Source: Promethearchaeota archaeon | GTDB taxonomy: Archaea; Asgardarchaeota; Heimdallarchaeia; Hodarchaeales; Hodarchaeaceae | Direction of reading: 5' to 3' | DNA: 64,000 nt | NCBI GenBank assembly: GCA_048938105.1 | Contig: JBHLMN010000018.1 | Location: forward strand, 1 to 64,000 | Shown here: positions 3,135-48,519 of the stretch, one piece after another | Layout: each line of letters starts with the position of its first letter | How positions within the stretch are numbered: position 1 is the first letter of the stretch | Program-made: the position numbers and the translations under genes | The notes under the pieces: model-generated | Seen by the model: the letters and a program-made list of their open reading frames with translations, nothing else | What the model was told of the DNA's origin: nothing | Database searches by the model: none

Positions 3135-4292
3135 ATGAAAATTCTAAAAAAGTATTTTATAATTCCATTTGTTTTTATAATAATAACAACTCATGCGAGT
3201 TGTTATGGTTTCATTCAAGGAGAAAACGTTCGAGAAAATACTTTACGAACTGAAGGACTTGTAATCATACAAGTCGGTGAGGATTTGGTACTTGAAAAAG
3301 GAGTTCAAAGTATCATTACTGAATTAAAACAGGAGAGAAAGCCCTTTCGTTTATTAAAAGTAGTTTCAGAGGAAAAACTCGCGATTACACTGACCAAATA
3401 TCATTCCTATGAGCTGGCTATCGTCGCTCATGGGGAATCAGACGGAATGTCAGTTAAAAAATCATTAATTAAATGGAGCGATATAGCATCTTTGATCGAT
3501 AATCGAGATCAAATGACTTACTTTGCCAGCTGTTATTCGCAATCTGTACTCCTTTATATTACAGATCAAGAACAAAAACAGTTGATCTGGGCACCATGGC
3601 CAGGATTAGCAGACCAGAAAATCGTAGGACTCTCTATAGTTACAGCATTTTTTGCAATGCATGGAGAAATCGAAAAAGCTATTAGTCTATTCGATGCAAT
3701 GCTTACCAATCATGTAGACCGAATGGTTAACCCTTTGGAAGTTCTATGGAATGATATCATTCATCACCAATGGGTATATAATTATTATTATTTCGCCACT
3801 ATTCTTATTGAAAACACAGCAAATTTGATACTTCATCTCGTATTAGACGCTCTTTTGCCAATATGGGTAGTTGCCACCATAATAGAGTTATTATTGGCCG
3901 TAATTCATTCAGCTTCGACAGGACTCTTTTTTGCTGGTTTAGGTATAGGAGTAGGTGATATTTGCGACCTCTATTATGATTATACTCATATTAATAGTCT
4001 TATCCCTCCCTTAGTCATTGTTGTCCCATTCATCGGCGATGTATTAGTGGGAGGGTTACTTTCAGACACTGAGACATACATAGATGTATATCATCATGCT
4101 TCTAGCACTAAATTCAGAGTAAAAGAGCATATTTTTGTCATAGGAGCAACTGCGGGTGGAATTCTTACATTAGGTGTATCTTGGGTAGAATGGCATTTAA
4201 TTTCAAGTGAACCATACGACAGTGGTGGGGGTGGCGGCGGCGGCGGGGGCGGTGGGGGTGGTGGCGGCGGCGGCGGAATTTATCCTATTTAA
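3135..4292 (+). CDS. Secreted protein with caspase/CHAT-like (clan CD) His-Cys domain, hydrophobic C-terminal domain and Gly18 tail
   Basis: Signal peptide; beta-strand-HG (LAIVAHGE) and beta-strand-SC (TYFASCYS) motifs; several hydrophobic helices; ends DS-G18-IYPI. Confidence 0.6.
   Translation: MKILKKYFIIPFVFIIITTHASCYGFIQGENVRENTLRTEGLVIIQVGEDLVLEKGVQSIITELKQERKPFRLLKVVSEEKLAITLTKYHSYELAIVAHGESDGMSVKKSLIKWSDIASLIDNRDQMTYFASCYSQSVLLYITDQEQKQLIWAPWPGLADQKIVGLSIVTAFFAMHGEIEKAISLFDAMLTNHVDRMVNPLEVLWNDIIHHQWVYNYYYFATILIENTANLILHLVLDALLPIWVVATIIELLLAVIHSASTGLFFAGLGIGVGDICDLYYDYTHINSLIPPLVIVVPFIGDVLVGGLLSDTETYIDVYHHASSTKFRVKEHIFVIGATAGGILTLGVSWVEWHLISSEPYDSGGGGGGGGGGGGGGGGGGIYPI
4224..4277 (+). 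repeat. (GGN)18 poly-glycine tract
   Basis: 18 consecutive Gly codons with mixed third positions; GC spike in an AT-rich region. Confidence 0.95.
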
Positions 4293-6813: not shown

Positions 6814-7189
6814 GAATAAGTTCTGTTCTTTTTCGTAGAAATTGATTGTTTAAAAGTTATTATTCTGGCAGGAAATAGAAGCTAAGAAAACAGATTTCAA
6901 TCAGTAATAACTGCAAGTTATCGACCATATGTAATGGTCAAGTGGAACTGCTTATCGATTTTAAATTATAATTCGTGATAGCGGAAATGATATGGACTTA
7001 ATGATTGAGGAGCAATAATATATGGACACTTTGTTTAATCAGTAATAAACTAAAAAAACAATCTCCTCCTTCATGTATTTTGTTAATGATTTTCTAAAAA
7101 ATTATTTTTATAGAAATATTTATTAGTAAAATGGTTATAAACCATTTTAAGTCATTTAAAGTTTATAATTCCTGATTGGAGGCATTTTT

Positions 7190-8119
7190 TTGGAAATCGG
7201 TGATTTCATCAAAATTTCTGACCACACTTCAATGGTAATTGGAGAAAGACCACATGGAAATACTGGCGGGATTTCTCTTGAGAATTATACTGTTGCAGTT
7301 GATTCCACTGGTAACTTAAGTGGTGGGAAAATTTTCCGCAAAAAGCTTGAGAACTATTACAATCTCCCAATTAAATACGTCATATTTACTCACTATCATG
7401 GAGATCATATCAATGGAAGACAAGCGTTTAAGGATGTTGATCTAATAATCTCTGATTTTATTCCGACAGATAAGGGACGATTTCAGAATGCTATTTTCAT
7501 TAAAGATGATTATTCAATCCAAGACGAGAATCTCGAGGTGAAAATATTCCATACTGGGGGTCATACGGTTGATTCGATGTTCGTGCATTTTCCTAGCGAG
7601 GAAATTGTTTTTGCAGGAGATATAATTTTCGAGAATCTTTTTCCACCCTTTGGTGGTGATCCGACTTGCAATCCGGAGCTATGGTTCCAGGCTTTGGAGA
7701 AAATCGAAGCATTAAATCCTATTAAAATTGTCCCAGGACACGGACCATATCTCACAGGGGATAAAATCAATAACCACCTATCTAATTTGCAAAAGCTTCG
7801 AATTAATGTCAAAAAAGCAATTAAAGAGAATCTGAAACCTCATGAAATTGAGATATCTGATTATTATGGCGAATTCCATCAAAGATGGATGTCAAGAACT
7901 CTTCCTCACTGGTTTTCGTTCTATAGTACAATTGACAAAATCCCTGGAATTTTAGAAGAAATTCGATCGAATTCCCATGATCATAATAGAATTTTACTTT
8001 CAAAAATGACAATAAAAGAATTAAAAGTTTTAGCTAATCATCTAAAATTCAGGCCTAGTGGAAATAAAAATAAAATAATAAGTGAGATAATAGATTACTT
8101 AGAAAAGCATGAATCTTAG
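7190..8119 (+). CDS. MBL-fold metallo-hydrolase with C-terminal SAP-like domain
   Basis: THYHGDH, GGHT, AGD and PGHG motifs. C-terminal LSKMTIKELKVLANHLKFRPSGNKNKIISEI resembles the SAP consensus. Confidence 0.85.
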   Translation: MEIGDFIKISDHTSMVIGERPHGNTGGISLENYTVAVDSTGNLSGGKIFRKKLENYYNLPIKYVIFTHYHGDHINGRQAFKDVDLIISDFIPTDKGRFQNAIFIKDDYSIQDENLEVKIFHTGGHTVDSMFVHFPSEEIVFAGDIIFENLFPPFGGDPTCNPELWFQALEKIEALNPIKIVPGHGPYLTGDKINNHLSNLQKLRINVKKAIKENLKPHEIEISDYYGEFHQRWMSRTLPHWFSFYSTIDKIPGILEEIRSNSHDHNRILLSKMTIKELKVLANHLKFRPSGNKNKIISEIIDYLEKHES

Positions 8120-8133
8120 AATGTAGTTTTCAG

Positions 8134-9660
8134 ATGATAGAAGTGGTAAAACAAAGAAGGAGAGAATTTGGGGAATTTCAAACTCCTAATGAGTTGGCAA
8201 GTAAAATTATCTATCATTTAAAACTGTTAGGCTTCTCCCCTGCTTCTATCATTGAACCAACTTGCGGTACTGGCTCTTTTATTTTCGCATGTTTAGAAAT
8301 ATTCTCAGAAGCGAAAATTATTGGAATAGATATTAATTCCAATTATTTAGACTTAATCACAGAAAAATTATCTCAGATAAATGGATTAAAAAAGGTTGAA
8401 CTCCTTCAAGCGAACTTTTTCGATGTAGATTGGCAAAAAAAGATTGAGAAGCTTACTGAACCAGTTTTAATTGTTGGAAATCCTCCATGGGTCACATCAT
8501 CAGAAATTGGTGTTTTGGGTGGTACTAATATCCCTGTAAAAAGTAATATTCATGGTTTTCAAGGTTTGGACACGAAAACTGGTAAAAGTAATTTTGACAT
8601 CTCTGAATGGATGATAATAGAGCTATTAAAAACTCTAAATGGACATTTAGGTACTCTTACGATGCTTTGTAAAGTAGCAGTTGCACGAAAAGTGTTGTCA
8701 TATGCCAAAAAGGGTGGAATTTCAGTGTTTTCCTCAAAAATAATTCATATCGATGCTAAAGAGTATTTTGGCGCCTCAGTCGACGCATGTTTATTCATCT
8801 GTAACCTAAGACCTGATTCACAGAATTATTACTGCCAAGTTTATGAGAACTTTAATTCAAACATCCCAATTCAAGAAATTGGATATATTGACGAAAGAAT
8901 GGTAGCAAATCTACCATTATATAAAAAGTGGAAACACTTACTTGGGGAAAGTACTTACGTTTGGCGTTCAGGGATTAAACATGATTGTGCAAAGGTAATG
9001 GAATTAATAAGGACCGATAATGGATTTCTTAATGGATTTGGGGAGAATGTCACAATCGAAAATAATTACATTTATCCAATGCTCAAAAGCTCTGATTTGG
9101 CTAATAATCGAACTAAAAATATTGAACGATGGATGATTGTTACACAAAAGTCTATAGGAGAAGATACATCTACTATCCAAGAGGAGGCCCCTTTAACATG
9201 GGAATATTTAGAGAAGAATGGTCATCTTCTTGAGAATCGGGCAAGTAGCATATATCTGAATCGCCCTCAATATTCTATATTTGGTGTTGGAAGTTATACG
9301 TTTTCTCCTTGGAAGGTTGCAATTTCTGGGTTTTATAAAGACTTGAAATTCAGATTAATAGGACCATTTGAAAAAAAACCTGTTGTATTTGATGACACTT
9401 GTTACTTCATTCCAGCTAGATCTTTAGAAGAAGCAGCAACACTTCATTCCCTATTGAATCATCCAATTGCCCGTGAATTTTATCAGTCTTTCATCTATTG
9501 GGACGAAAAACGACCAATTACTAAGCAAGTCTTGAAACAACTTGACTTTAAGAAGTTATTTTATGAGATTGGTTATTTTACACTCCTAGATATATTACTA
9601 GATAACTACAGGGGCATAAAAAAGGATTTAATAATTTCTAGCTTAGAACAATTTAAATAA
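8134..9660 (+). CDS. N6-adenine DNA methyltransferase (gamma class)
   Basis: GEFQTP (motif X), IEPTCGTGSF (motif I), GNPPW (motif IV) and a C-terminal target-recognition region. Confidence 0.9.
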   Translation: MIEVVKQRRREFGEFQTPNELASKIIYHLKLLGFSPASIIEPTCGTGSFIFACLEIFSEAKIIGIDINSNYLDLITEKLSQINGLKKVELLQANFFDVDWQKKIEKLTEPVLIVGNPPWVTSSEIGVLGGTNIPVKSNIHGFQGLDTKTGKSNFDISEWMIIELLKTLNGHLGTLTMLCKVAVARKVLSYAKKGGISVFSSKIIHIDAKEYFGASVDACLFICNLRPDSQNYYCQVYENFNSNIPIQEIGYIDERMVANLPLYKKWKHLLGESTYVWRSGIKHDCAKVMELIRTDNGFLNGFGENVTIENNYIYPMLKSSDLANNRTKNIERWMIVTQKSIGEDTSTIQEEAPLTWEYLEKNGHLLENRASSIYLNRPQYSIFGVGSYTFSPWKVAISGFYKDLKFRLIGPFEKKPVVFDDTCYFIPARSLEEAATLHSLLNHPIAREFYQSFIYWDEKRPITKQVLKQLDFKKLFYEIGYFTLLDILLDNYRGIKKDLIISSLEQFK

Positions 9661-9907
9661 CAGCGAGCTTAACCGTAAAATGGTAGAGAGATGATAGTAC
9701 ATTTTGAATGAACATATATAGATCTACTCCAATCACATGTAGTTAATTGCCTTTTTTTTACAGAAAAGGGAGTATAAGGCACACCGTATATATTATGGAA
9801 AGGTGTTGATCATTATAGATTAACCGTTCCTTTTCCAAAGAGCTGTATTGGCGTAACAATGCTCCTTTGTACATCTAAATGGTGGATTTAATGTGTGAAT
9901 CTCTGTC

Positions 9908-11312: not shown

Positions 11313-12293
11313 ATGTCAATTACCATTGAATTAATGATGGAATTTTCAGATGATACTGGATTAACGTCAAATAAGCCAAAAAGAAGATATCTTTGGACTG
11401 ATGGATTCGCAGTTTGTAATTTCTTGGAATTATACCAAATTTCTAAAGATAATAAATTCAAAAACCTAGCGATAGAGTTAGTTGAACAAGTTCACAGGAT
11501 ACTAGGTAAGCATAGAGAAGATGATGAGAGATCAGGGTGGTTGGGAAGCAAAGATTCCCCTACAAAACGCGGATTGAGAATAGGAAAACCTTTGCCCGAA
11601 AGGAAGCCACATGAACCTTTTAACCCAAACTTGGAATGGGATCGTGATGGCCAGTACTTTCATTATCTCACAAAGTGGATGCATGCTCTAAACAGGATTT
11701 ATCAAGTAGTTAAAGAAGAAAAATACCTCACATGGGCAATTGATCTTGCAAAGGCGTCAACAGGTTTTATCAGGGACAATAGGATGTTTTGGAAAATGAG
11801 TATTGACCTTTCTTATCCTCTAGTTCCCTCGATGGGACAACACGATCCTGTTGATGGTTATGTCACTTTTAAAGAAATACAAGCAGTATCTGATATTGAT
11901 TTAGGAGCAGCGTTAAAAAAATTTGAAAAATTAATGCACCAAATTAATCTCATAACAACTGATCCTCTTGGTATTGGAGGGCTATTATTTGATGCCTATA
12001 GACTTGAACAAATGGGCGAATCTGAAAAAAGGCAGACTCTCATTGATGCTGCTCGAAAAGGACTCGAATACTGTCAGTTGTCACATGTTTTAGCATTTAG
12101 AGAACTCGGTTTAGCAATAGGATTACAAGCTGCTAAAAAGATGTCTGTTTTAAAAGAATATTGGTCATTAATAGATAAGATTAATGATTATTGGCTTCAA
12201 AATAGGGGTTGGACAGAGCACAAGGATATTAACAGTGTCATGCTAGCAACAAGTATAATACCAGGTAGTTTTCTATCGATTTCAGAATATTAG
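11313..12293 (+). CDS. Conserved hypothetical protein, probable alpha/alpha-toroid (six-hairpin glycosidase-like) fold
   Basis: RRYLWTD, DRDGQYFHYLTKWMHAL, FWKMSIDLSYPLVPSMGQHDP and HKDINSVMLATS motifs of a widespread uncharacterised family. Confidence 0.7.
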   Translation: MSITIELMMEFSDDTGLTSNKPKRRYLWTDGFAVCNFLELYQISKDNKFKNLAIELVEQVHRILGKHREDDERSGWLGSKDSPTKRGLRIGKPLPERKPHEPFNPNLEWDRDGQYFHYLTKWMHALNRIYQVVKEEKYLTWAIDLAKASTGFIRDNRMFWKMSIDLSYPLVPSMGQHDPVDGYVTFKEIQAVSDIDLGAALKKFEKLMHQINLITTDPLGIGGLLFDAYRLEQMGESEKRQTLIDAARKGLEYCQLSHVLAFRELGLAIGLQAAKKMSVLKEYWSLIDKINDYWLQNRGWTEHKDINSVMLATSIIPGSFLSISEY

Positions 12294-12302
12294 ATCTCAT
12301 GG

Positions 12303-13088
12303 ATGGAATTGAACTTGTCAGACAATTTAGGGAGAAAATACTATTTATCACAAAAACCTAAAATTATGGTGAATTTTGAGAAACAGATCAAGCTCTTTAG
12401 GAGAGTATTATGCAAGCAATTCGAGGAAAAGGTTGTCGATCAGATTATTAATGACACACGGATGGAATATGAAGAATTAATCCCTGAAATGCCGTATATC
12501 GGAGCCGAGGAGAGTCGAGTGGGAAAAAGATTAACAAGTAACATCATTAATACAACAATGGGTTTAGCGTTATGGAAAACCATAAAAAAACGCAGCGTTA
12601 CTGTTGAGGAAGCAGCAGTACTCCTATGCGAAACAGCTGAAGAGATGTTTAACTCTATGTCACGATTCTCAAAAATCTTCTTACGAACGTTCAGAACTTT
12701 GACCTATAGTTTTCCATTAAAACATCTGTACAGAAGACTTCTAAAGAACATGGCGAAAAAGTCTCAAGAAAGGGAATTTCATAATAATTTTGTAATGCAT
12801 TATATTGATGGGGAGGGGGAAGAATTCGATTTTGGATTTGATTATACAGTCTGTCCAATCAACAACTTTTGGCGTGAACAGGGGGAAGAGGAGTTATTGC
12901 CATATATTTGCTTATATGATTATTTCACAAGTGATCTCACAGGATCAGGGTTAATCAGAACACAAACCTTAGCAGAAGGATTTGATAGATGCGACTTCAG
13001 ATTTAAGAGAGGGAGAAAGTCGGAAAACAGGCAACGAACGCAATTTATAAAGAGAAAAGACTTAATTTCATTTCAGGAGCTAGATTAA
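12303..13088 (+). CDS. L-2-amino-thiazoline-4-carboxylic acid hydrolase family (V4R-related) protein
   Basis: FDYTVCPI...YICLYD...LIRTQTLAEGFDRCDFRF motif. Confidence 0.85.
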   Translation: MELNLSDNLGRKYYLSQKPKIMVNFEKQIKLFRRVLCKQFEEKVVDQIINDTRMEYEELIPEMPYIGAEESRVGKRLTSNIINTTMGLALWKTIKKRSVTVEEAAVLLCETAEEMFNSMSRFSKIFLRTFRTLTYSFPLKHLYRRLLKNMAKKSQEREFHNNFVMHYIDGEGEEFDFGFDYTVCPINNFWREQGEEELLPYICLYDYFTSDLTGSGLIRTQTLAEGFDRCDFRFKRGRKSENRQRTQFIKRKDLISFQELD

Positions 13089-44198: not shown

Positions 44199-44676
44199 GT
44201 TTCCTATGACTCCATTTTTCCTATTTAGCGGGTTTAGAGTCCTTTATTTATTAAGAGTAACAACTAAGATTACAAAACAATCTTTTATATATTATACCAT
44301 CGATTTGATTCAAACCCTTTTCATACGAAAACAACCGTAAATTATCAGATGTGGCTCTTCAGGAGGTTATTCTCTGCTTTATTGTTGTCATTTCTCCATC
44401 CTCTTGACTTTTGTTCTTATTTCTTGTATATGTTCGCTATAAAAGAATCTTAGATCTTTTTCAATTAATCTCCTTTCGAAATTTCTTCCATTCAATCATA
44501 TGAATTTTATGTTCAATACCATTACGCTAATAACCAAAATAATTAAGATACCTTCATTGTTGATTACTTATTTATCACATTAGGGGATGTACCCTTCATT
44601 TTTTGATTTGATATACTAACAATCTCTCTAGTTAACTTGAAGAAAGAAAGAAATGATATAATTACCTGATTCTCAT

Positions 44677-45060
44677 ATGATTAATGCAACTCAAGAACTT
44701 AGTTCAAGAAACAAAGAATTAGATGTAATTCTTGAAAATTATTTGAAAAAAACCTCTTCTATCCAAGCTATCACCGTTGTAAGCCCAAATGGCCTTCCTA
44801 TAGCATCTAGCTCTGATGAAAATGAAGTAGTCATCGCTGCGATGACTGCTGCGAGCCAAGCATTATCAGAACGTGTTTTAACAGAATTAGATAGGGGAGA
44901 TATGCAAGAAATCATGCTTTCAGGAAAAAATGGTTTTGTAGTCATACTGAATGCAGGAGAGAATGCTGTTGTTAGTTTTACTGCTAAGGATTTCAAAAGC
45001 ATAGGATTGGTGCGGGTCTTAGCAAAACAACTGGCAAAAATTATTTCTGAAATGGTATAG
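44677..45060 (+). CDS. Roadblock/LC7 (MglB-like) protein
   Basis: VVSPNGLPIAS, IAAMTAA, ELDRGDMQEIMLSGKNG and AGENAV motifs. Confidence 0.93.
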   Translation: MINATQELSSRNKELDVILENYLKKTSSIQAITVVSPNGLPIASSSDENEVVIAAMTAASQALSERVLTELDRGDMQEIMLSGKNGFVVILNAGENAVVSFTAKDFKSIGLVRVLAKQLAKIISEMV

Positions 45061-45564
45061 TATCATTATGTCTAAAATGTGTTGAGCTTAAGGTGGTATT
45101 GTAAAAAATCCTCTTCTATTGAAAATTGCTCCAAAACTCTTCATAATTCTCAACACGAAATTATTGTCCTTATATTCTGTGTAAAAATAATGATATAAAC
45201 AATTGATCCAATAACCAAAAATTCCGCCTTTCACTATAATAAACTGTCTATTAAATAATTATTCACACAACTTGAAAAAAGAATTCATCAATAGATCTGA
45301 TGAGTGACATGTTAGATTTTTTCTCTAACTTCTATGAATGTTCGTTCCAACTGGTACCAATTTCTAAAGGAACCGATTTACTTGAGGATATTTTTGAGCA
45401 AATGAAGGTACAGGTAAAAACTTTCTATCAATTACTACATTGGAAGCGTAATCACCTATTATTTCCTAAACCAACATTAAGTACTGATCAAATTTTTTTT
45501 CTGGGTTCATTCCTCTGTTTTAGAATCTGCTTTACTTTTAACAGGAGTACAAGGCGGGTTTAAA

Positions 45565-46041
45565 GTGACTCAAAAAGGACCAAAACTCTGTGATTCTTCA
45601 ACTTATAAAGGGAAAAAACAAACACCCCGTCCCCGTCGGGTTCTACTGGACATTGGTTGCGATGATCCTGATCTTATCAAAGCTTTAACTCAACTAGGCT
45701 TGGAAGTTGAACTGGTCTGGCGCCATGCCGTGGATCTCTTGAATTATGAAATTATCGAAATCTGTACAGCCCAACACATTGCTATCTTGGTGTCAACCAA
45801 TAGCCAGTTATTGACTCCCCCAGAAGAATGGCTCACTTATCTCATGCCTCATCGAACAAGGCTCTTTTTTCCGCCTCCGCAATTGTTGCACGACCCGAAA
45901 GGTTTAGCTCAGGCTATCTATGAACGTACTTTTACTCGACTGAAACGAAAACAAGTGGGACAGCTTAATCCACACCATTTACCTCGTAATTCTAGTAAAA
46001 ACGTTACTAATCCCCCTTCAAATAAAATTAACATGGAGTGA
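45565..46041 (+). CDS. Degenerate PIN-like (Mut7-C/DUF5615-type) protein
   Basis: RVLLD...LIKALTQLGLEV...LNYEIIEIC...ILVSTN follows the fllD...L..lG.dv...sD.eI...ilTxD pattern, with two Asp>Asn changes. Stop overlaps the tnpB start (GTGA). Confidence 0.55.
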   Translation: MTQKGPKLCDSSTYKGKKQTPRPRRVLLDIGCDDPDLIKALTQLGLEVELVWRHAVDLLNYEIIEICTAQHIAILVSTNSQLLTPPEEWLTYLMPHRTRLFFPPPQLLHDPKGLAQAIYERTFTRLKRKQVGQLNPHHLPRNSSKNVTNPPSNKINME

Positions 46042-47573
46042 GGAATCTAATGCGACTAACCCTTGAAGCAGCATGGTATCCATCCACAGAACAACATCAA
46101 ATCATTCAGGATCATATGAGACGCTTTCAAATCGTGAAACGCGTCGCATTCAACTGTCTCCTCAAAGGACACGCGAGACAACCAATTGTCACTCGGATTC
46201 GAAAATTAAATCTCCTCTCAAACGCTCGGTATATTCGCTCTGCAATTGAGGAAGCCAAAACAATTATCCAAGCTCAACAACAGCTGGTCTCTCTTTATTG
46301 CAAGGAGAGTGCGTGGAAAGTCCAACAGGCTAATCAACGCTTGAAGGACTACCAACAAACCTTGAATCAAAAACAAAAACCTTTCACGAAAAAACAATAT
46401 CAAAAACTCAAAGGACTACATACTTATTTCCAAAAGACCCAGTCTCTCCAGATGAAATGGCAAACTCATAGAAAAAATAAGACTATTCCTTCAATAGTAT
46501 TTGGAGGCAAACAAAATCTTCACCTATACCAACAAGGAAAAATATCCAAAGAGGAGTGGACTAAAAGACGGAACAATGGCATTTATTGTGTGGGTGAAAA
46601 AAACAAGCGAGGCAACGCCAACTTACGTCTTCATTATGATCCTCTTACCGACACATTCACTTTTTCGATGCTATTAGATCGTGGCCAAAGAAATGAGCGA
46701 TTGAGGGCTTTTTTATTTATCCCAATCAAGTATGAAACACTTTTTCGACGATTAACCTATAGTGAAGAGAAATACACTGTTCGTGTTTTGTACTCCACTA
46801 ATAGGACTTTTTTTCGAGTATTGGTTACATTAGATCTTTCAACCGAAATCATATCAAATAATAATGGGATAGCTGGAATAGATCTTAATCCTTCAGGGAT
46901 TGCGATCACTTTAATCTATCCTAATGGAAATTATCGCTGTTCAAGATGGTTTTTCTGCTCTGAACTAGTATATGCCCGAAAAGAGAAGCGTGACTGGTTG
47001 ATCGGTAATCTTGTGAAAAAAGCTCTCAATTGGATTACTTCGTATAAGTTGAATACTCTCACTTTAGAAGATTTGACATTTTATAAGCAGTTTGGATCAA
47101 ATAAAAGGTTTAATCGAATCAAAACAAACTTTGTTCACAAAAAATTACTTCAGACTATTCAAGCTCAAGCGATAAAACAGAAAATAACACTCAAATTGAT
47201 TAATCCAGCCTATACTTCAATTCTTGGCAAGATAAAATATCAACGCTGTTATGGTCTGAATATTCACCAGGCTGCTGCTTTAGTCATTGCCCGTCGCAGT
47301 CTGGGTTTAAATGAAAAACTTTATGCTCACATCAATGGGAAACGGCTGGTGTTGGTTGTTCCACCGATGGAAGGATGGACAAGCAAACAGATCCACCGTT
47401 TATCCCGTGAGATAGATGAGTTCACGGCTCACCTGGGTAATTCAACGAGTAAAGTGTCGGTTAGTTTACCCCGACTAATTACTCGGCGCCAAGGCTCAGG
47501 AGGCGGGATAGTCCCCCGCGATCACACCCCTACTCCAGGTAAGGGTGCACCAGTTCTCAAGACTGGTGTTTAG
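46038..47573 (+). CDS. tnpB: TnpB-related RNA-guided nuclease (clade lacking the Zn finger, with atypical RuvC-III)
   Basis: RuvC-I GIDLN, RuvC-II LEDL, and INPAYTSILGKIKY...NIHQAAALVIARR. Confidence 0.9.
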   Translation: MRNLMRLTLEAAWYPSTEQHQIIQDHMRRFQIVKRVAFNCLLKGHARQPIVTRIRKLNLLSNARYIRSAIEEAKTIIQAQQQLVSLYCKESAWKVQQANQRLKDYQQTLNQKQKPFTKKQYQKLKGLHTYFQKTQSLQMKWQTHRKNKTIPSIVFGGKQNLHLYQQGKISKEEWTKRRNNGIYCVGEKNKRGNANLRLHYDPLTDTFTFSMLLDRGQRNERLRAFLFIPIKYETLFRRLTYSEEKYTVRVLYSTNRTFFRVLVTLDLSTEIISNNNGIAGIDLNPSGIAITLIYPNGNYRCSRWFFCSELVYARKEKRDWLIGNLVKKALNWITSYKLNTLTLEDLTFYKQFGSNKRFNRIKTNFVHKKLLQTIQAQAIKQKITLKLINPAYTSILGKIKYQRCYGLNIHQAAALVIARRSLGLNEKLYAHINGKRLVLVVPPMEGWTSKQIHRLSREIDEFTAHLGNSTSKVSVSLPRLITRRQGSGGGIVPRDHTPTPGKGAPVLKTGV

Positions 47574-47652
47574 CATAATTCCTGATCAACTCTTCATAAA
47601 ATGTCTAGATTTGCAGAGGATTTATGTACCTGGTATTGTAACACTACCTTGT
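47425..47652 (+). ncRNA. Predicted omegaRNA (scaffold to about 47633, then guide)
   Basis: Stems CGAGTAA/TTACTCG (47446/47479), GTCGG/CCGAC, GCGGG/CCCGC, CACCAGT/ACTGGTG and CATAATTCCT/AGGATTTATG. CCAGGTA (47535) is complementary to the terminal TACCTGG (47627-47633). The 5' end is approximate. Confidence 0.7.
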
Positions 47653-47735
47653 TAAAAGGAAATCTTCTAAAAAGAACAACCTGATTACCGTTTTTTAGAT
47701 TGAGAATATCGAAAGAAAGACTCTGAGGATATAGA

Positions 47736-48464
47736 ATGAGGATCGAGCAATTTGCAAGCATATATCTAGAGTTTAATAAACCTGTGGTATTAGAGGTCTA
47801 TCAGGGTTATCTTATTGCTGGACAGATAAAAAGTAGGGCACCACGTTGTTTTTGGATCAATAAACAAAACATTGAGGGGATTGCAGAATTAGCTAAGATC
47901 GTAGCAATCGAATCTGCCTTTCATGGCCTTCTTTCACTAATCCCAGGAGGATCATTTGCTTATCGTTTGATAAAGGATCAAATTGGTTATCCCCCTCGTT
48001 TTAATGTAATATTCGAACCAAGATATTACACTGTTACATATAGCACCATCACTTTGGATCAAAAAGGAGATAATAAAGGTATAGTTGATGGTCTTGTTCA
48101 TGGTATTGACAGTGTGGCAAAAATGGCCCTTAAAACAGGTAGTAAACTGCAAGAAACGATTGTTGAATTAATAACAAAAGAAAAATCAAATACTATACCG
48201 AGTGATGATATCTTAGGATTTACTTATATAAGATTTGATGATGTGACAACTGCTATTCGTAATAAAATCGTAGAAAAACGTTTATCTGAAACAAAATCTA
48301 CTTCAGCAAGGTTGGCAAAGAGTACAATGGCTGATATTGTTCCTCCAGTTGTCGTTAGTTTCAAAACCACAGCCAATGAGGAAGCAATGAATTTTCTCAG
48401 TCATTTACATCAATTAGGTTTTAAAGTTAATTTTTCTAAATCCATTGTTGATGCAAACAAATAA
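47736..48464 (+). CDS. Hypothetical protein
   Basis: 242-aa ORF with GAGG upstream; no motif recognised. Confidence 0.65.
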   Translation: MRIEQFASIYLEFNKPVVLEVYQGYLIAGQIKSRAPRCFWINKQNIEGIAELAKIVAIESAFHGLLSLIPGGSFAYRLIKDQIGYPPRFNVIFEPRYYTVTYSTITLDQKGDNKGIVDGLVHGIDSVAKMALKTGSKLQETIVELITKEKSNTIPSDDILGFTYIRFDDVTTAIRNKIVEKRLSETKSTSARLAKSTMADIVPPVVVSFKTTANEEAMNFLSHLHQLGFKVNFSKSIVDANK

Positions 48465-48519
48465 GGCTTAAAGTTTGCACATCAACACAAAGAAGAACAT
48501 TGTAAGGAATAACTGAGAA

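Follow-up and report, generated by a model that had tools for sequence, protein, structure and literature searches.

An inserted tnpB element with a frameshifted upstream gene in a Hodarchaeales contig, and the Asgard gene family to which that gene belongs

What occupies the transposase slot of an archaeal tnpB element that has no transposase, and does the TnpB protein depend on it? The element considered here lies in the first 64,000 nucleotides (nt) of contig JBHLMN010000018.1 from a Promethearchaeota archaeon of the Hodarchaeales (the whole 64-kb stretch is called the window), where an open reading frame (ORF) of 158 amino acids (aa) directly precedes a 511-aa tnpB gene. An initial annotation had treated this ORF as a whole PIN-like gene and proposed a working two-component RNA-guided system, with captured cargo as its own alternative. 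We find that the ORF is a fragment of a gene of about 244 aa, here called gene B, and that the window copy is, judged by comparison with its relatives, a pseudogene: a frameshifted remnant and a decaying passenger. Captured cargo is the description that best fits the window. Overall, we consider it probable that the element joins a functional TnpB core to the debris of a larger unit, composed of a Cas1-like integrase (aCas1), a gene A, gene B and an effector; elsewhere, B may act as an effector accessory.

The insertion and its broken gene B

The element is made up of the following features, all on the forward strand.

45094-45104 (+): left direct repeat TGGTATTGTAA, the duplicated target site, 11 nt
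45099-45299 (+): relic of gene A, its last ~200 nt, containing stop codons and lacking a start
45300-45563 (+): 87-aa ORF; codons 1-66 are the true N-terminus of gene B and the remainder is out of frame
45493-45500 (+): run of eight T (T8), the frameshift site of gene B, product of a 2-nt deletion
45565-46041 (+): 158-aa ORF, the C-terminal two-thirds of gene B with Y160H and D162A; it holds the linker and an alpha/beta domain that is plausibly PIN/DUF5615-like
46038-47573 (+): tnpB, 511 aa, RIIIr-4 type (PF27229), intact
47400-47633 (+): omegaRNA-like structured 3′ region and right end, terminating in GTACCTGG
47631-47641 (+): right direct repeat TGGTATTGTAA; from 47634 onward, host flank and presumed guide template

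The unit sits between a Roadblock/LC7 gene on one side and a 242-aa host gene on the other. In two congeneric genomes (G003 and G008), the left (Roadblock-side) and right flanks are contiguous and share one copy of TGGTATTGTAA, forming an empty site, and in the window this exact 11-nt repeat is found in two copies, one per junction. Because of the empty site and the two-copy repeat, the 2,537-bp unit is a genuine insertion with an 11-nt duplication. Similarity to independent copies ends at 47632/47633, while nucleotide homology to the A genes of two other loci (L019 and L028) starts at 45099/45100. The 158-aa ORF therefore lies inside the element ends, as had been proposed from the sequence, on the combined evidence of the homology stop, the repeat and the empty site. 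The ORF list and the Pfam and NCBIfam scans contain no Y1 or serine-recombinase ORF or domain between these ends, in agreement with the annotated absence of such a transposase. The A-B pair that directly precedes the effector gene survives here as a relic, made up of a 200-nt stub of A, whose tblastn match is confined to A residues 128-163, and a frameshifted B.

The break in gene B is best seen within the same genome (5.85 Mb, 99% complete), which has three copies of B including that of the window. The two paralogous loci lie on contigs C6 and C46, and in the C6 paralogue (L002:1682-2416) one intact 244-aa ORF spans both the 87-aa and the 158-aa ORFs of the window. The 158-aa ORF is thus not the whole gene that it was first taken to be, and the 87-aa ORF has 89% identity to residues 1-66 of intact B. 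When aligned to five intact relatives, the window copy is missing 2 nt, which generates the T8 run; the five relatives have no homopolymer at this site. Three sequencing runs (X1, X2 and X6), one of them from another study, yield contigs with the identical frameshifted sequence, and the frameshift is therefore not an assembly slip. The window copy has also lost conserved residues. In an alignment of 32 B sequences, D118, E151, D162 and N168 are invariant and Tyr160 is near-invariant, and where the family reads AQYIDIL the window copy reads AQHIAIL; both substitutions, Y160H and D162A, occur in the window copy only.

The manner of insertion can be compared across related elements. At five of the eight right ends examined, an exact direct repeat consisting of TGG plus 7-9 nt brackets the element; random positions show this in 2.4% of cases. 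Each of the five has a G just before the left copy (GTGG), and CTGG at the right end. The bracketing repeats are found in the window (45094-45104 and 47631-47641), in L105 (4081 and 7011), in L080 (3102 and 5447), in L084 (5987 and 9518) and, on the reverse strand, in L114 (7272 and 9230). They occur on elements with RIIIr-4 TnpB, with or without B or TnpA. The bracket looks like either a target duplication or an identity-guided crossover beside a motif resembling a transposon-associated motif. To our knowledge, such direct-repeat bracketing, or an 11-nt duplication, is not a pattern reported for IS607.

The genome also has four resolvase-domain matches (C52:248905-249309 and three other places), one of them with an open 215-aa frame. 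These genes are possible candidates for an IS607-type TnpA that acts in trans on the non-autonomous window element.

The TnpB protein and the right end

The 511-aa ORF matches NF040570 (E 1.6e-9; 37.5 bits, under the curated cutoff of 100) as well as TIGR01766 and TIGR01765. It has 198 homologues; among the matches listed, most carry PF27229, a family that ranges over Asgard archaea, Methanosarcinales and Firmicutes, and many are named TnpB-related. Across an alignment of 24 homologues, D282 (RuvC-I, GIDLNP) is nearly invariant, E344 (RuvC-II) is invariant, an invariant H410 (HQAAALVIARR) stands at the RuvC-III Asp position, and there is no Cys cluster or zinc finger. The window protein retains the RuvC-I Asp, the RuvC-II Glu and the RuvC-III His, and the zinc finger is absent. 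The RIIIr-4 clade is described in PMC10691335 as having the RuvC-III Asp replaced by His and no C4 zinc finger, and its authors consider the clade active. Since the window TnpB keeps D, E and H and has no zinc finger, we assign it to the RIIIr-4 type.

The translational coupling of tnpB to the 158-aa ORF holds only in part. The GTG start of tnpB does overlap the TGA stop of the upstream ORF, but the starting Met of most TnpB homologues aligns with the ATG at 46050. This ATG is likely, from the alignment, to be the true start, in which case the two frames may be separated by a 9-nt gap and not overlap at all.

The closest relatives of this TnpB differ in what stands upstream of them.

L081, 73% identity: MerR and resolvase TnpA upstream (IS607 layout)
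L080, 72% identity: MerR fragment of TnpA upstream (decayed IS607 layout)
P0087 and P0105, 63% and 53% identity: solo tnpB, nothing upstream
G048 copy, same genus, 83% identity: only the last 55 nt of B upstream
L105, 82% identity: B intact, A a 100-nt stub, aCas1 absent

The expectation that tnpA normally occupies this slot is borne out, as the relatives at 72-73% identity have an IS607 MerR-resolvase TnpA exactly where B sits. Because close relatives carry TnpA, nothing or a 55-nt remnant of B upstream, TnpB is independent of B, and the 511-aa TnpB type does not appear to require it. This type was found in 4 of 82 genomes of a class-level sample, all from one genus. In its first ~25 nt, the L105 element resembles the left terminus of L080, which is of the IS607 type. 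A left-hand segment of ~190 nt is also common, at 77% identity, to the elements of L105 (4092-4574), which carries B, and of G048 (L114, reverse strand, 7383-7569), which does not. These shared stretches suggest internal deletions between a fixed left end and differing points in A or B.

A side observation concerns the setting of the L105 element. The insertion lies between Pcc1/prefoldin genes (3218-4061) and an L37ae-exosome cluster (RNase PH, Rrp4; 7036-9819), a neighborhood that is strongly conserved in archaea.

The 3′ part of the window element is its most conserved portion: the last ~250 nt are ~97% conserved, compared with 84-89% for the remainder. The right end that terminates in GTACCTGG at 47633 is common to IS607-type and solo tnpB relatives. 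The consensus fold has CCAGGTA (47535-47541) paired to TACCTGG (47627-47633), with compensatory changes at nine pairs. A scan of 44500-48500 against Rfam found no family, apart from a chance match to isrC (E 0.24). The final ~55 codons of the 511-aa TnpB of Asgard archaea (…RRQGSGGGIVPRDHTPTPGKGAPV…) overlap, at 47400-47573 of the window, with the best-conserved RNA-like stretch. Bacterial relatives lack this protein tail or have a different one, and the RNA may be the main reason for its conservation. At 47483-47516, the depth of metagenome contigs rises 3- to 7-fold over a GC-rich segment of ~35 nt (core GGCGCCAAGGCTCAGGAGGCGGGATAGTCCCCCGC), where many contigs continue on both sides into unrelated, GC-richer sequence. 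The omegaRNA core appears to be common to many other elements and organisms.

Gene B and its usual neighbors

Intact B recovers 67 relatives from the database, mostly of 230-250 aa, and the names on them are all Asgard (Hodarchaeales, and metagenome-assembled genomes labelled Heimdall or Thor). An exhaustive HMMER search of a B profile against 1.84 billion representatives gave 24 matches only, 17 of them at E<=1e-10; the 24 included no longer protein that ties B to a known family and no distant relatives. As far as these searches reach, intact B is limited to Asgard archaea.

We took a census of ~40 B loci from assemblies, species-representative genomes and metagenomes. They share one layout, in which a large gene (985-1,456 aa), encoded on the opposite strand, precedes A (146-302 aa), B and a variable slot. 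A and B are tightly packed and have the same orientation as the effector gene in the slot, and the large gene is divergent. The C-terminal 399 aa of the large protein are conserved and have a predicted fold with a mean predicted local distance difference test (pLDDT) score of 79. Hidden Markov model (HMM) searches against PDB and Pfam, including searches with this C-terminal part, gave no match, a profile comparison (hhalign) to Asgard Cas1 reached a probability of 1.3%, though with the E/H/D motifs aligned, and a feature search of the ESM Atlas returned nothing usable. The fold search was decisive: each of the top 50 PDB matches is a Cas1 or a casposase (best E 1.5e-4, probability 1.0), and the aligned E, H and D positions are the Cas1 catalytic residues. 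The Cas1 identity is settled by this fold search alone, and we refer to the large protein as aCas1, a predicted Cas1-like integrase. The window has no Cas1-like integrase gene upstream of its A/B relic, and a protein search of its whole genome with an aCas1 query found no match.

The variable slot holds effectors of several kinds. In many loci it contains a Cas7/Csm3-like RAMP (PADLOC E 2.6e-9; Pfam RAMPs E 0.0018) together with a second gene of 272-294 aa, and no CRISPR-like repeat arrays were found in two such loci (L013 and L014). In others it contains a guided TnpB of ~400 aa (NF040570, 194 bits), a third TnpB lineage of 451 aa (200 bits, 26% identity to the ~400-aa lineage), or the 511-aa type seen in the window. 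The slot after B holds a 706-aa protein with a C2H2 zinc finger and a possible winged helix-turn-helix in L008 (2832-4952) and a 568-aa protein in L030 (1652-3358). These two proteins are unrelated to each other, to TnpB and to RAMPs; they could be further effector types.

The B-tnpB pair had been proposed for a search at other insertion sites, and it does recur. B is directly followed by tnpB at ~20 independent loci, in three unrelated TnpB lineages; the two genes usually overlap or lie a few to 20 nt apart, and never more than 158 nt. The tight spacing and the recurrence over three TnpB lineages in one B clade exclude chance adjacency by independent insertions. A maximum-likelihood tree places the RAMP-linked B genes at the base, with all TnpB-linked ones nested among them as a single clade (support 95/88), within which the slot occupant changes several times. 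In both RAMP and TnpB contexts, the ratio of nonsynonymous to synonymous substitution rates (dN/dS) of intact B is 0.14-0.29, and the gene is under purifying selection wherever it has stayed whole. The idea of B as a stand-alone partner that replaced the transposase does not survive this comparison: B is the third gene of a conserved aCas1, A, B set, and this set also precedes RAMPs.

The complete units are mobile, since in two loci (L009 and L028) the same 7.2 kb are colinear at 80% identity, from the stop codon of aCas1 to ~55 nt beyond tnpB, and the flanks are unrelated. When the surroundings of such 7.2-kb aCas1-to-TnpB blocks were searched for target duplications and terminal inverted repeats, one unconvincing 9-mer (L009) was all that came up. 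The tnpB genes here are not followed by the GTTCACTCA motif that has been reported for aCas1-TnpB loci.

The other B loci of the same genome show decay of their own. On contig C46 (L014 8938-11834), a locus of the ARAMP type described below has a shortened A, a B split by a stop into 112 and 96 aa, an intact Cas7-like gene (279 aa), a next gene cut to 92 aa, and no Cas1-like gene. Contig C6 (L015 8449-12483) has A, an intact B and a typical TnpB broken into 311 and 71 aa; a second, solo tnpB 3′ end with its right end follows ~1.5 kb further downstream (12291-12483). A similar solo right end is found, inverted, in L044.

Several of these parts belong to catalogued systems. Altae-Tran et al. 2023 (PMC10691335) described aCas1-associated TnpBs in two Asgard groups (Cas1H-Asgard-1 and -2) and proposed aCas1 as their transposase; the main text of that paper does not mention an A-B pair between aCas1 and tnpB. 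Like those elements, the B loci have Asgard hosts, a Cas1-like gene linked to tnpB in discrete mobile blocks, and an omegaRNA-like conserved 3′ end followed by a variable flank. In contrast, the window copy lacks aCas1 and most of A, its B is broken, and its tnpB comes from the IS607-type RIIIr-4 lineage. The ancestral context of B (aCas1, A, B, a Cas7-like gene and a second RAMP-sized gene, without an array) is that of ARAMP, Asgard RAMP systems that lack an array and carry a distinct Cas1 (Makarova et al. 2020, as cited in PMC8730458 and PMC12669027), whereas the window has no RAMP genes and a TnpB in their slot. With IS607 elements that carry RIIIr-4 TnpB, the window element shares the TnpB clade features and the right end, but it has no TnpA, its slot is filled by the A relic and the broken B, and it is flanked by an 11-nt duplication. 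The window element is thus a decayed member of catalogued kinds: aCas1-TnpB or ARAMP derivatives, and RIIIr-4 IS607-type TnpB.

What gene B may do

The AlphaFold2 model of B (pLDDT 75) consists of an N-terminal beta-alpha-beta-beta-alpha-beta domain that ends in a conserved Gly-rich loop (GVRGGF), a conserved basic linker (DSSTYKGKKQxPRPRR) and a C-terminal beta/alpha domain. The PIN-like pattern first noticed in the 158-aa ORF is retained as a plausible DUF5615/PIN-like C-terminal domain, according to model and sequence comparison, but formal family membership fails. An hhalign comparison to nine Asgard DUF5615 proteins reached a probability of 51% (E 1.5e-4) over 44 columns, which are the first half of that domain. 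Over these columns, B shares with DUF5615/PIN_10/Mut7-C the pattern beta1-LLD ... helix ... G.EV ... EII; in contrast, it has S-T-N in place of T-x-D-x-D-F, and an additional N-domain and basic linker. PF18480 and PF18478 have no match in the whole genome, which includes the three B copies. The 158-aa product matches no Pfam family at E<=1 and likewise none in NCBIfam. Against Pfam, NCBIfam, PADLOC and PDB sequences, neither the 158-aa ORF nor intact B gave more than weak matches, to WhiB7 (E 1.5) and pPIWI_RE_REase (E 0.045), which we rejected as unusable.

The fold search that the initial annotation had called for gave a divided answer. In the ESM Atlas, DUF5615/PIN_10 clusters are among the nearest (target-normalised template modelling scores of 0.49-0.59), but receiver domains score equally, and against PDB the CheY/receiver and B12-binding folds are on top (Z about 8). 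The Asn residues noted at expected acidic positions are indeed present; however, they are family-wide, and the family keeps its own invariant D118, E151, D162 and N168. These four are not at the DUF5615 T-x-D-x-D positions, and the window copy additionally carries D162A.

Our preferred account of the locus would run as follows. The window element would be a non-autonomous mobile insertion whose working core is the RIIIr-4 TnpB with its omegaRNA and right end. Its left part would be what is left of a larger Asgard element in which aCas1, on the opposite strand, is followed by A, B and an RNA-guided effector; aCas1 would have been lost, A reduced to its 200-nt relic, and B split and deprived of an invariant Asp. 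The TnpB-omegaRNA complex would act as in other IS607 and IS605 elements, with a guide taken from the flank (TATTGTAAC...). Mobilization would be supplied in trans, and insertion would take place after GTGG, duplicating TGG and 8 nt. Elsewhere, an intact B would be co-transcribed with A and with the slot effector, whether Cas7-like RAMPs or one of at least three TnpB lineages, and would aid, for example, guide or transcript processing or target degradation.

We tentatively regard intact B as a nucleic-acid-binding or nuclease accessory of an RNA-guided effector operon and not as part of the integrase, a role that we would put somewhat short of an even chance. It is favored over an integrase role because A and B are co-oriented and packed with the effector and because B survives without aCas1 in L105. 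A functional precedent, with no sequence relation claimed, is PcrIIC1, the PIN-domain accessory nuclease of type II-C Cas9 loci (PMC12669027), which likewise stands beside a single-protein RNA-guided nuclease; B differs in its effector family and in its host. A more specific version is doubtful: B would combine an RRM/RAMP-like N-domain with a PIN-like nuclease and serve any effector behind it, the A-B cassette would have swapped a Cas7/Cas5-type effector for at least three TnpB lineages, and B would have replaced TnpA in IS607-type derivatives while still under selection.

Several points weigh against these assignments. HMM searches place B in no family, and by fold comparison PIN-like and receiver-like alpha/beta sandwiches score too much alike to be told apart. 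For the N-domain, a RAMP-like identity draws solely on the order of secondary-structure elements and the Gly-rich loop, and any activity of B is a prediction. The constant neighbors of B are aCas1 and A, so that a role as an integrase accessory fits about equally. A and B may already have been named in Makarova et al. 2020. Finally, the T8 run may permit transcriptional or translational slippage, and the window copy of B is perhaps not wholly silent.

The alternative that survives best, although we consider it unlikely, is that B is an accessory of the aCas1 integrase, a functional analogue of Cas2 or Cas4, which stands beside TnpB only since TnpB took over the effector slot. In complete loci it is aCas1, A and B that are constant and the effector that varies, and entire aCas1-to-TnpB blocks move as units; this agrees with the published view of aCas1 as the transposase of aCas1-TnpB elements (PMC10691335). 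However, it is aCas1 that is divergent, with A and B aligned and packed with the effector, and in L105 an intact B persists with neither aCas1 nor a whole A. The profile comparisons are also negative, though as weak evidence: hhalign of the B N-terminal domain against 17 Asgard Cas2 proteins gave a probability of ~1%, and that of gene A against Cas4 showed no similarity.

A working two-component B-TnpB system in the window itself, as first proposed, would require that the frameshift be bypassed by slippage on the T8 run, and we judge this very improbable. The ORFs are tightly packed, the homopolymer lies exactly at the shift, and the 158-aa part has a dN/dS of 0.19-0.33 against its relatives. 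Against this, the five relatives without the homopolymer indicate that the shift is not a conserved recoding site, the invariant Asp162 and near-invariant Tyr160 are lost in what is now a pseudogene, A is reduced to a stub, and the sister element in G048, whose TnpB is 83% identical, has dropped nearly all of B. Least probable of all is that B stabilizes the mobile element, independently of RNA guidance, as a PIN-type toxin or addiction factor for which A or an RNA would be the antidote: the DUF5615/PIN-like similarity, the conserved D/E/D/N residues and the multiple copies in mobile units speak for it, but at 244 aa, with an additional conserved N-domain and a basic linker, B is unlike a VapC-type toxin, A looks nuclease-like and not like an antitoxin (an unconfirmed reading by eye, as PD-(D/E)xK/DUF559-like), and B is often intact where A is destroyed, as in L105, which would be intolerable for an unneutralized toxin.

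We therefore return to the account of a TnpB core with effector-operon debris. The B-effector pairing is real and recurrent elsewhere, yet it is largely catalogued already. What the locus adds is a defined family of ~244 aa that is selected beside both RAMP-type and TnpB-type effectors, and hence a candidate accessory for compact TnpB nucleases. The pair of occupied and empty sites, together with the recurrent duplication of TGG and 7-9 nt after GTGG, provides a handle on the mode of insertion, and in the series of progressively truncated copies the part that persists is TnpB with its omegaRNA. If the effector swap is true, it would be a natural exchange between class-1-like and TnpB-type guidance within one mobile Cas1 element.

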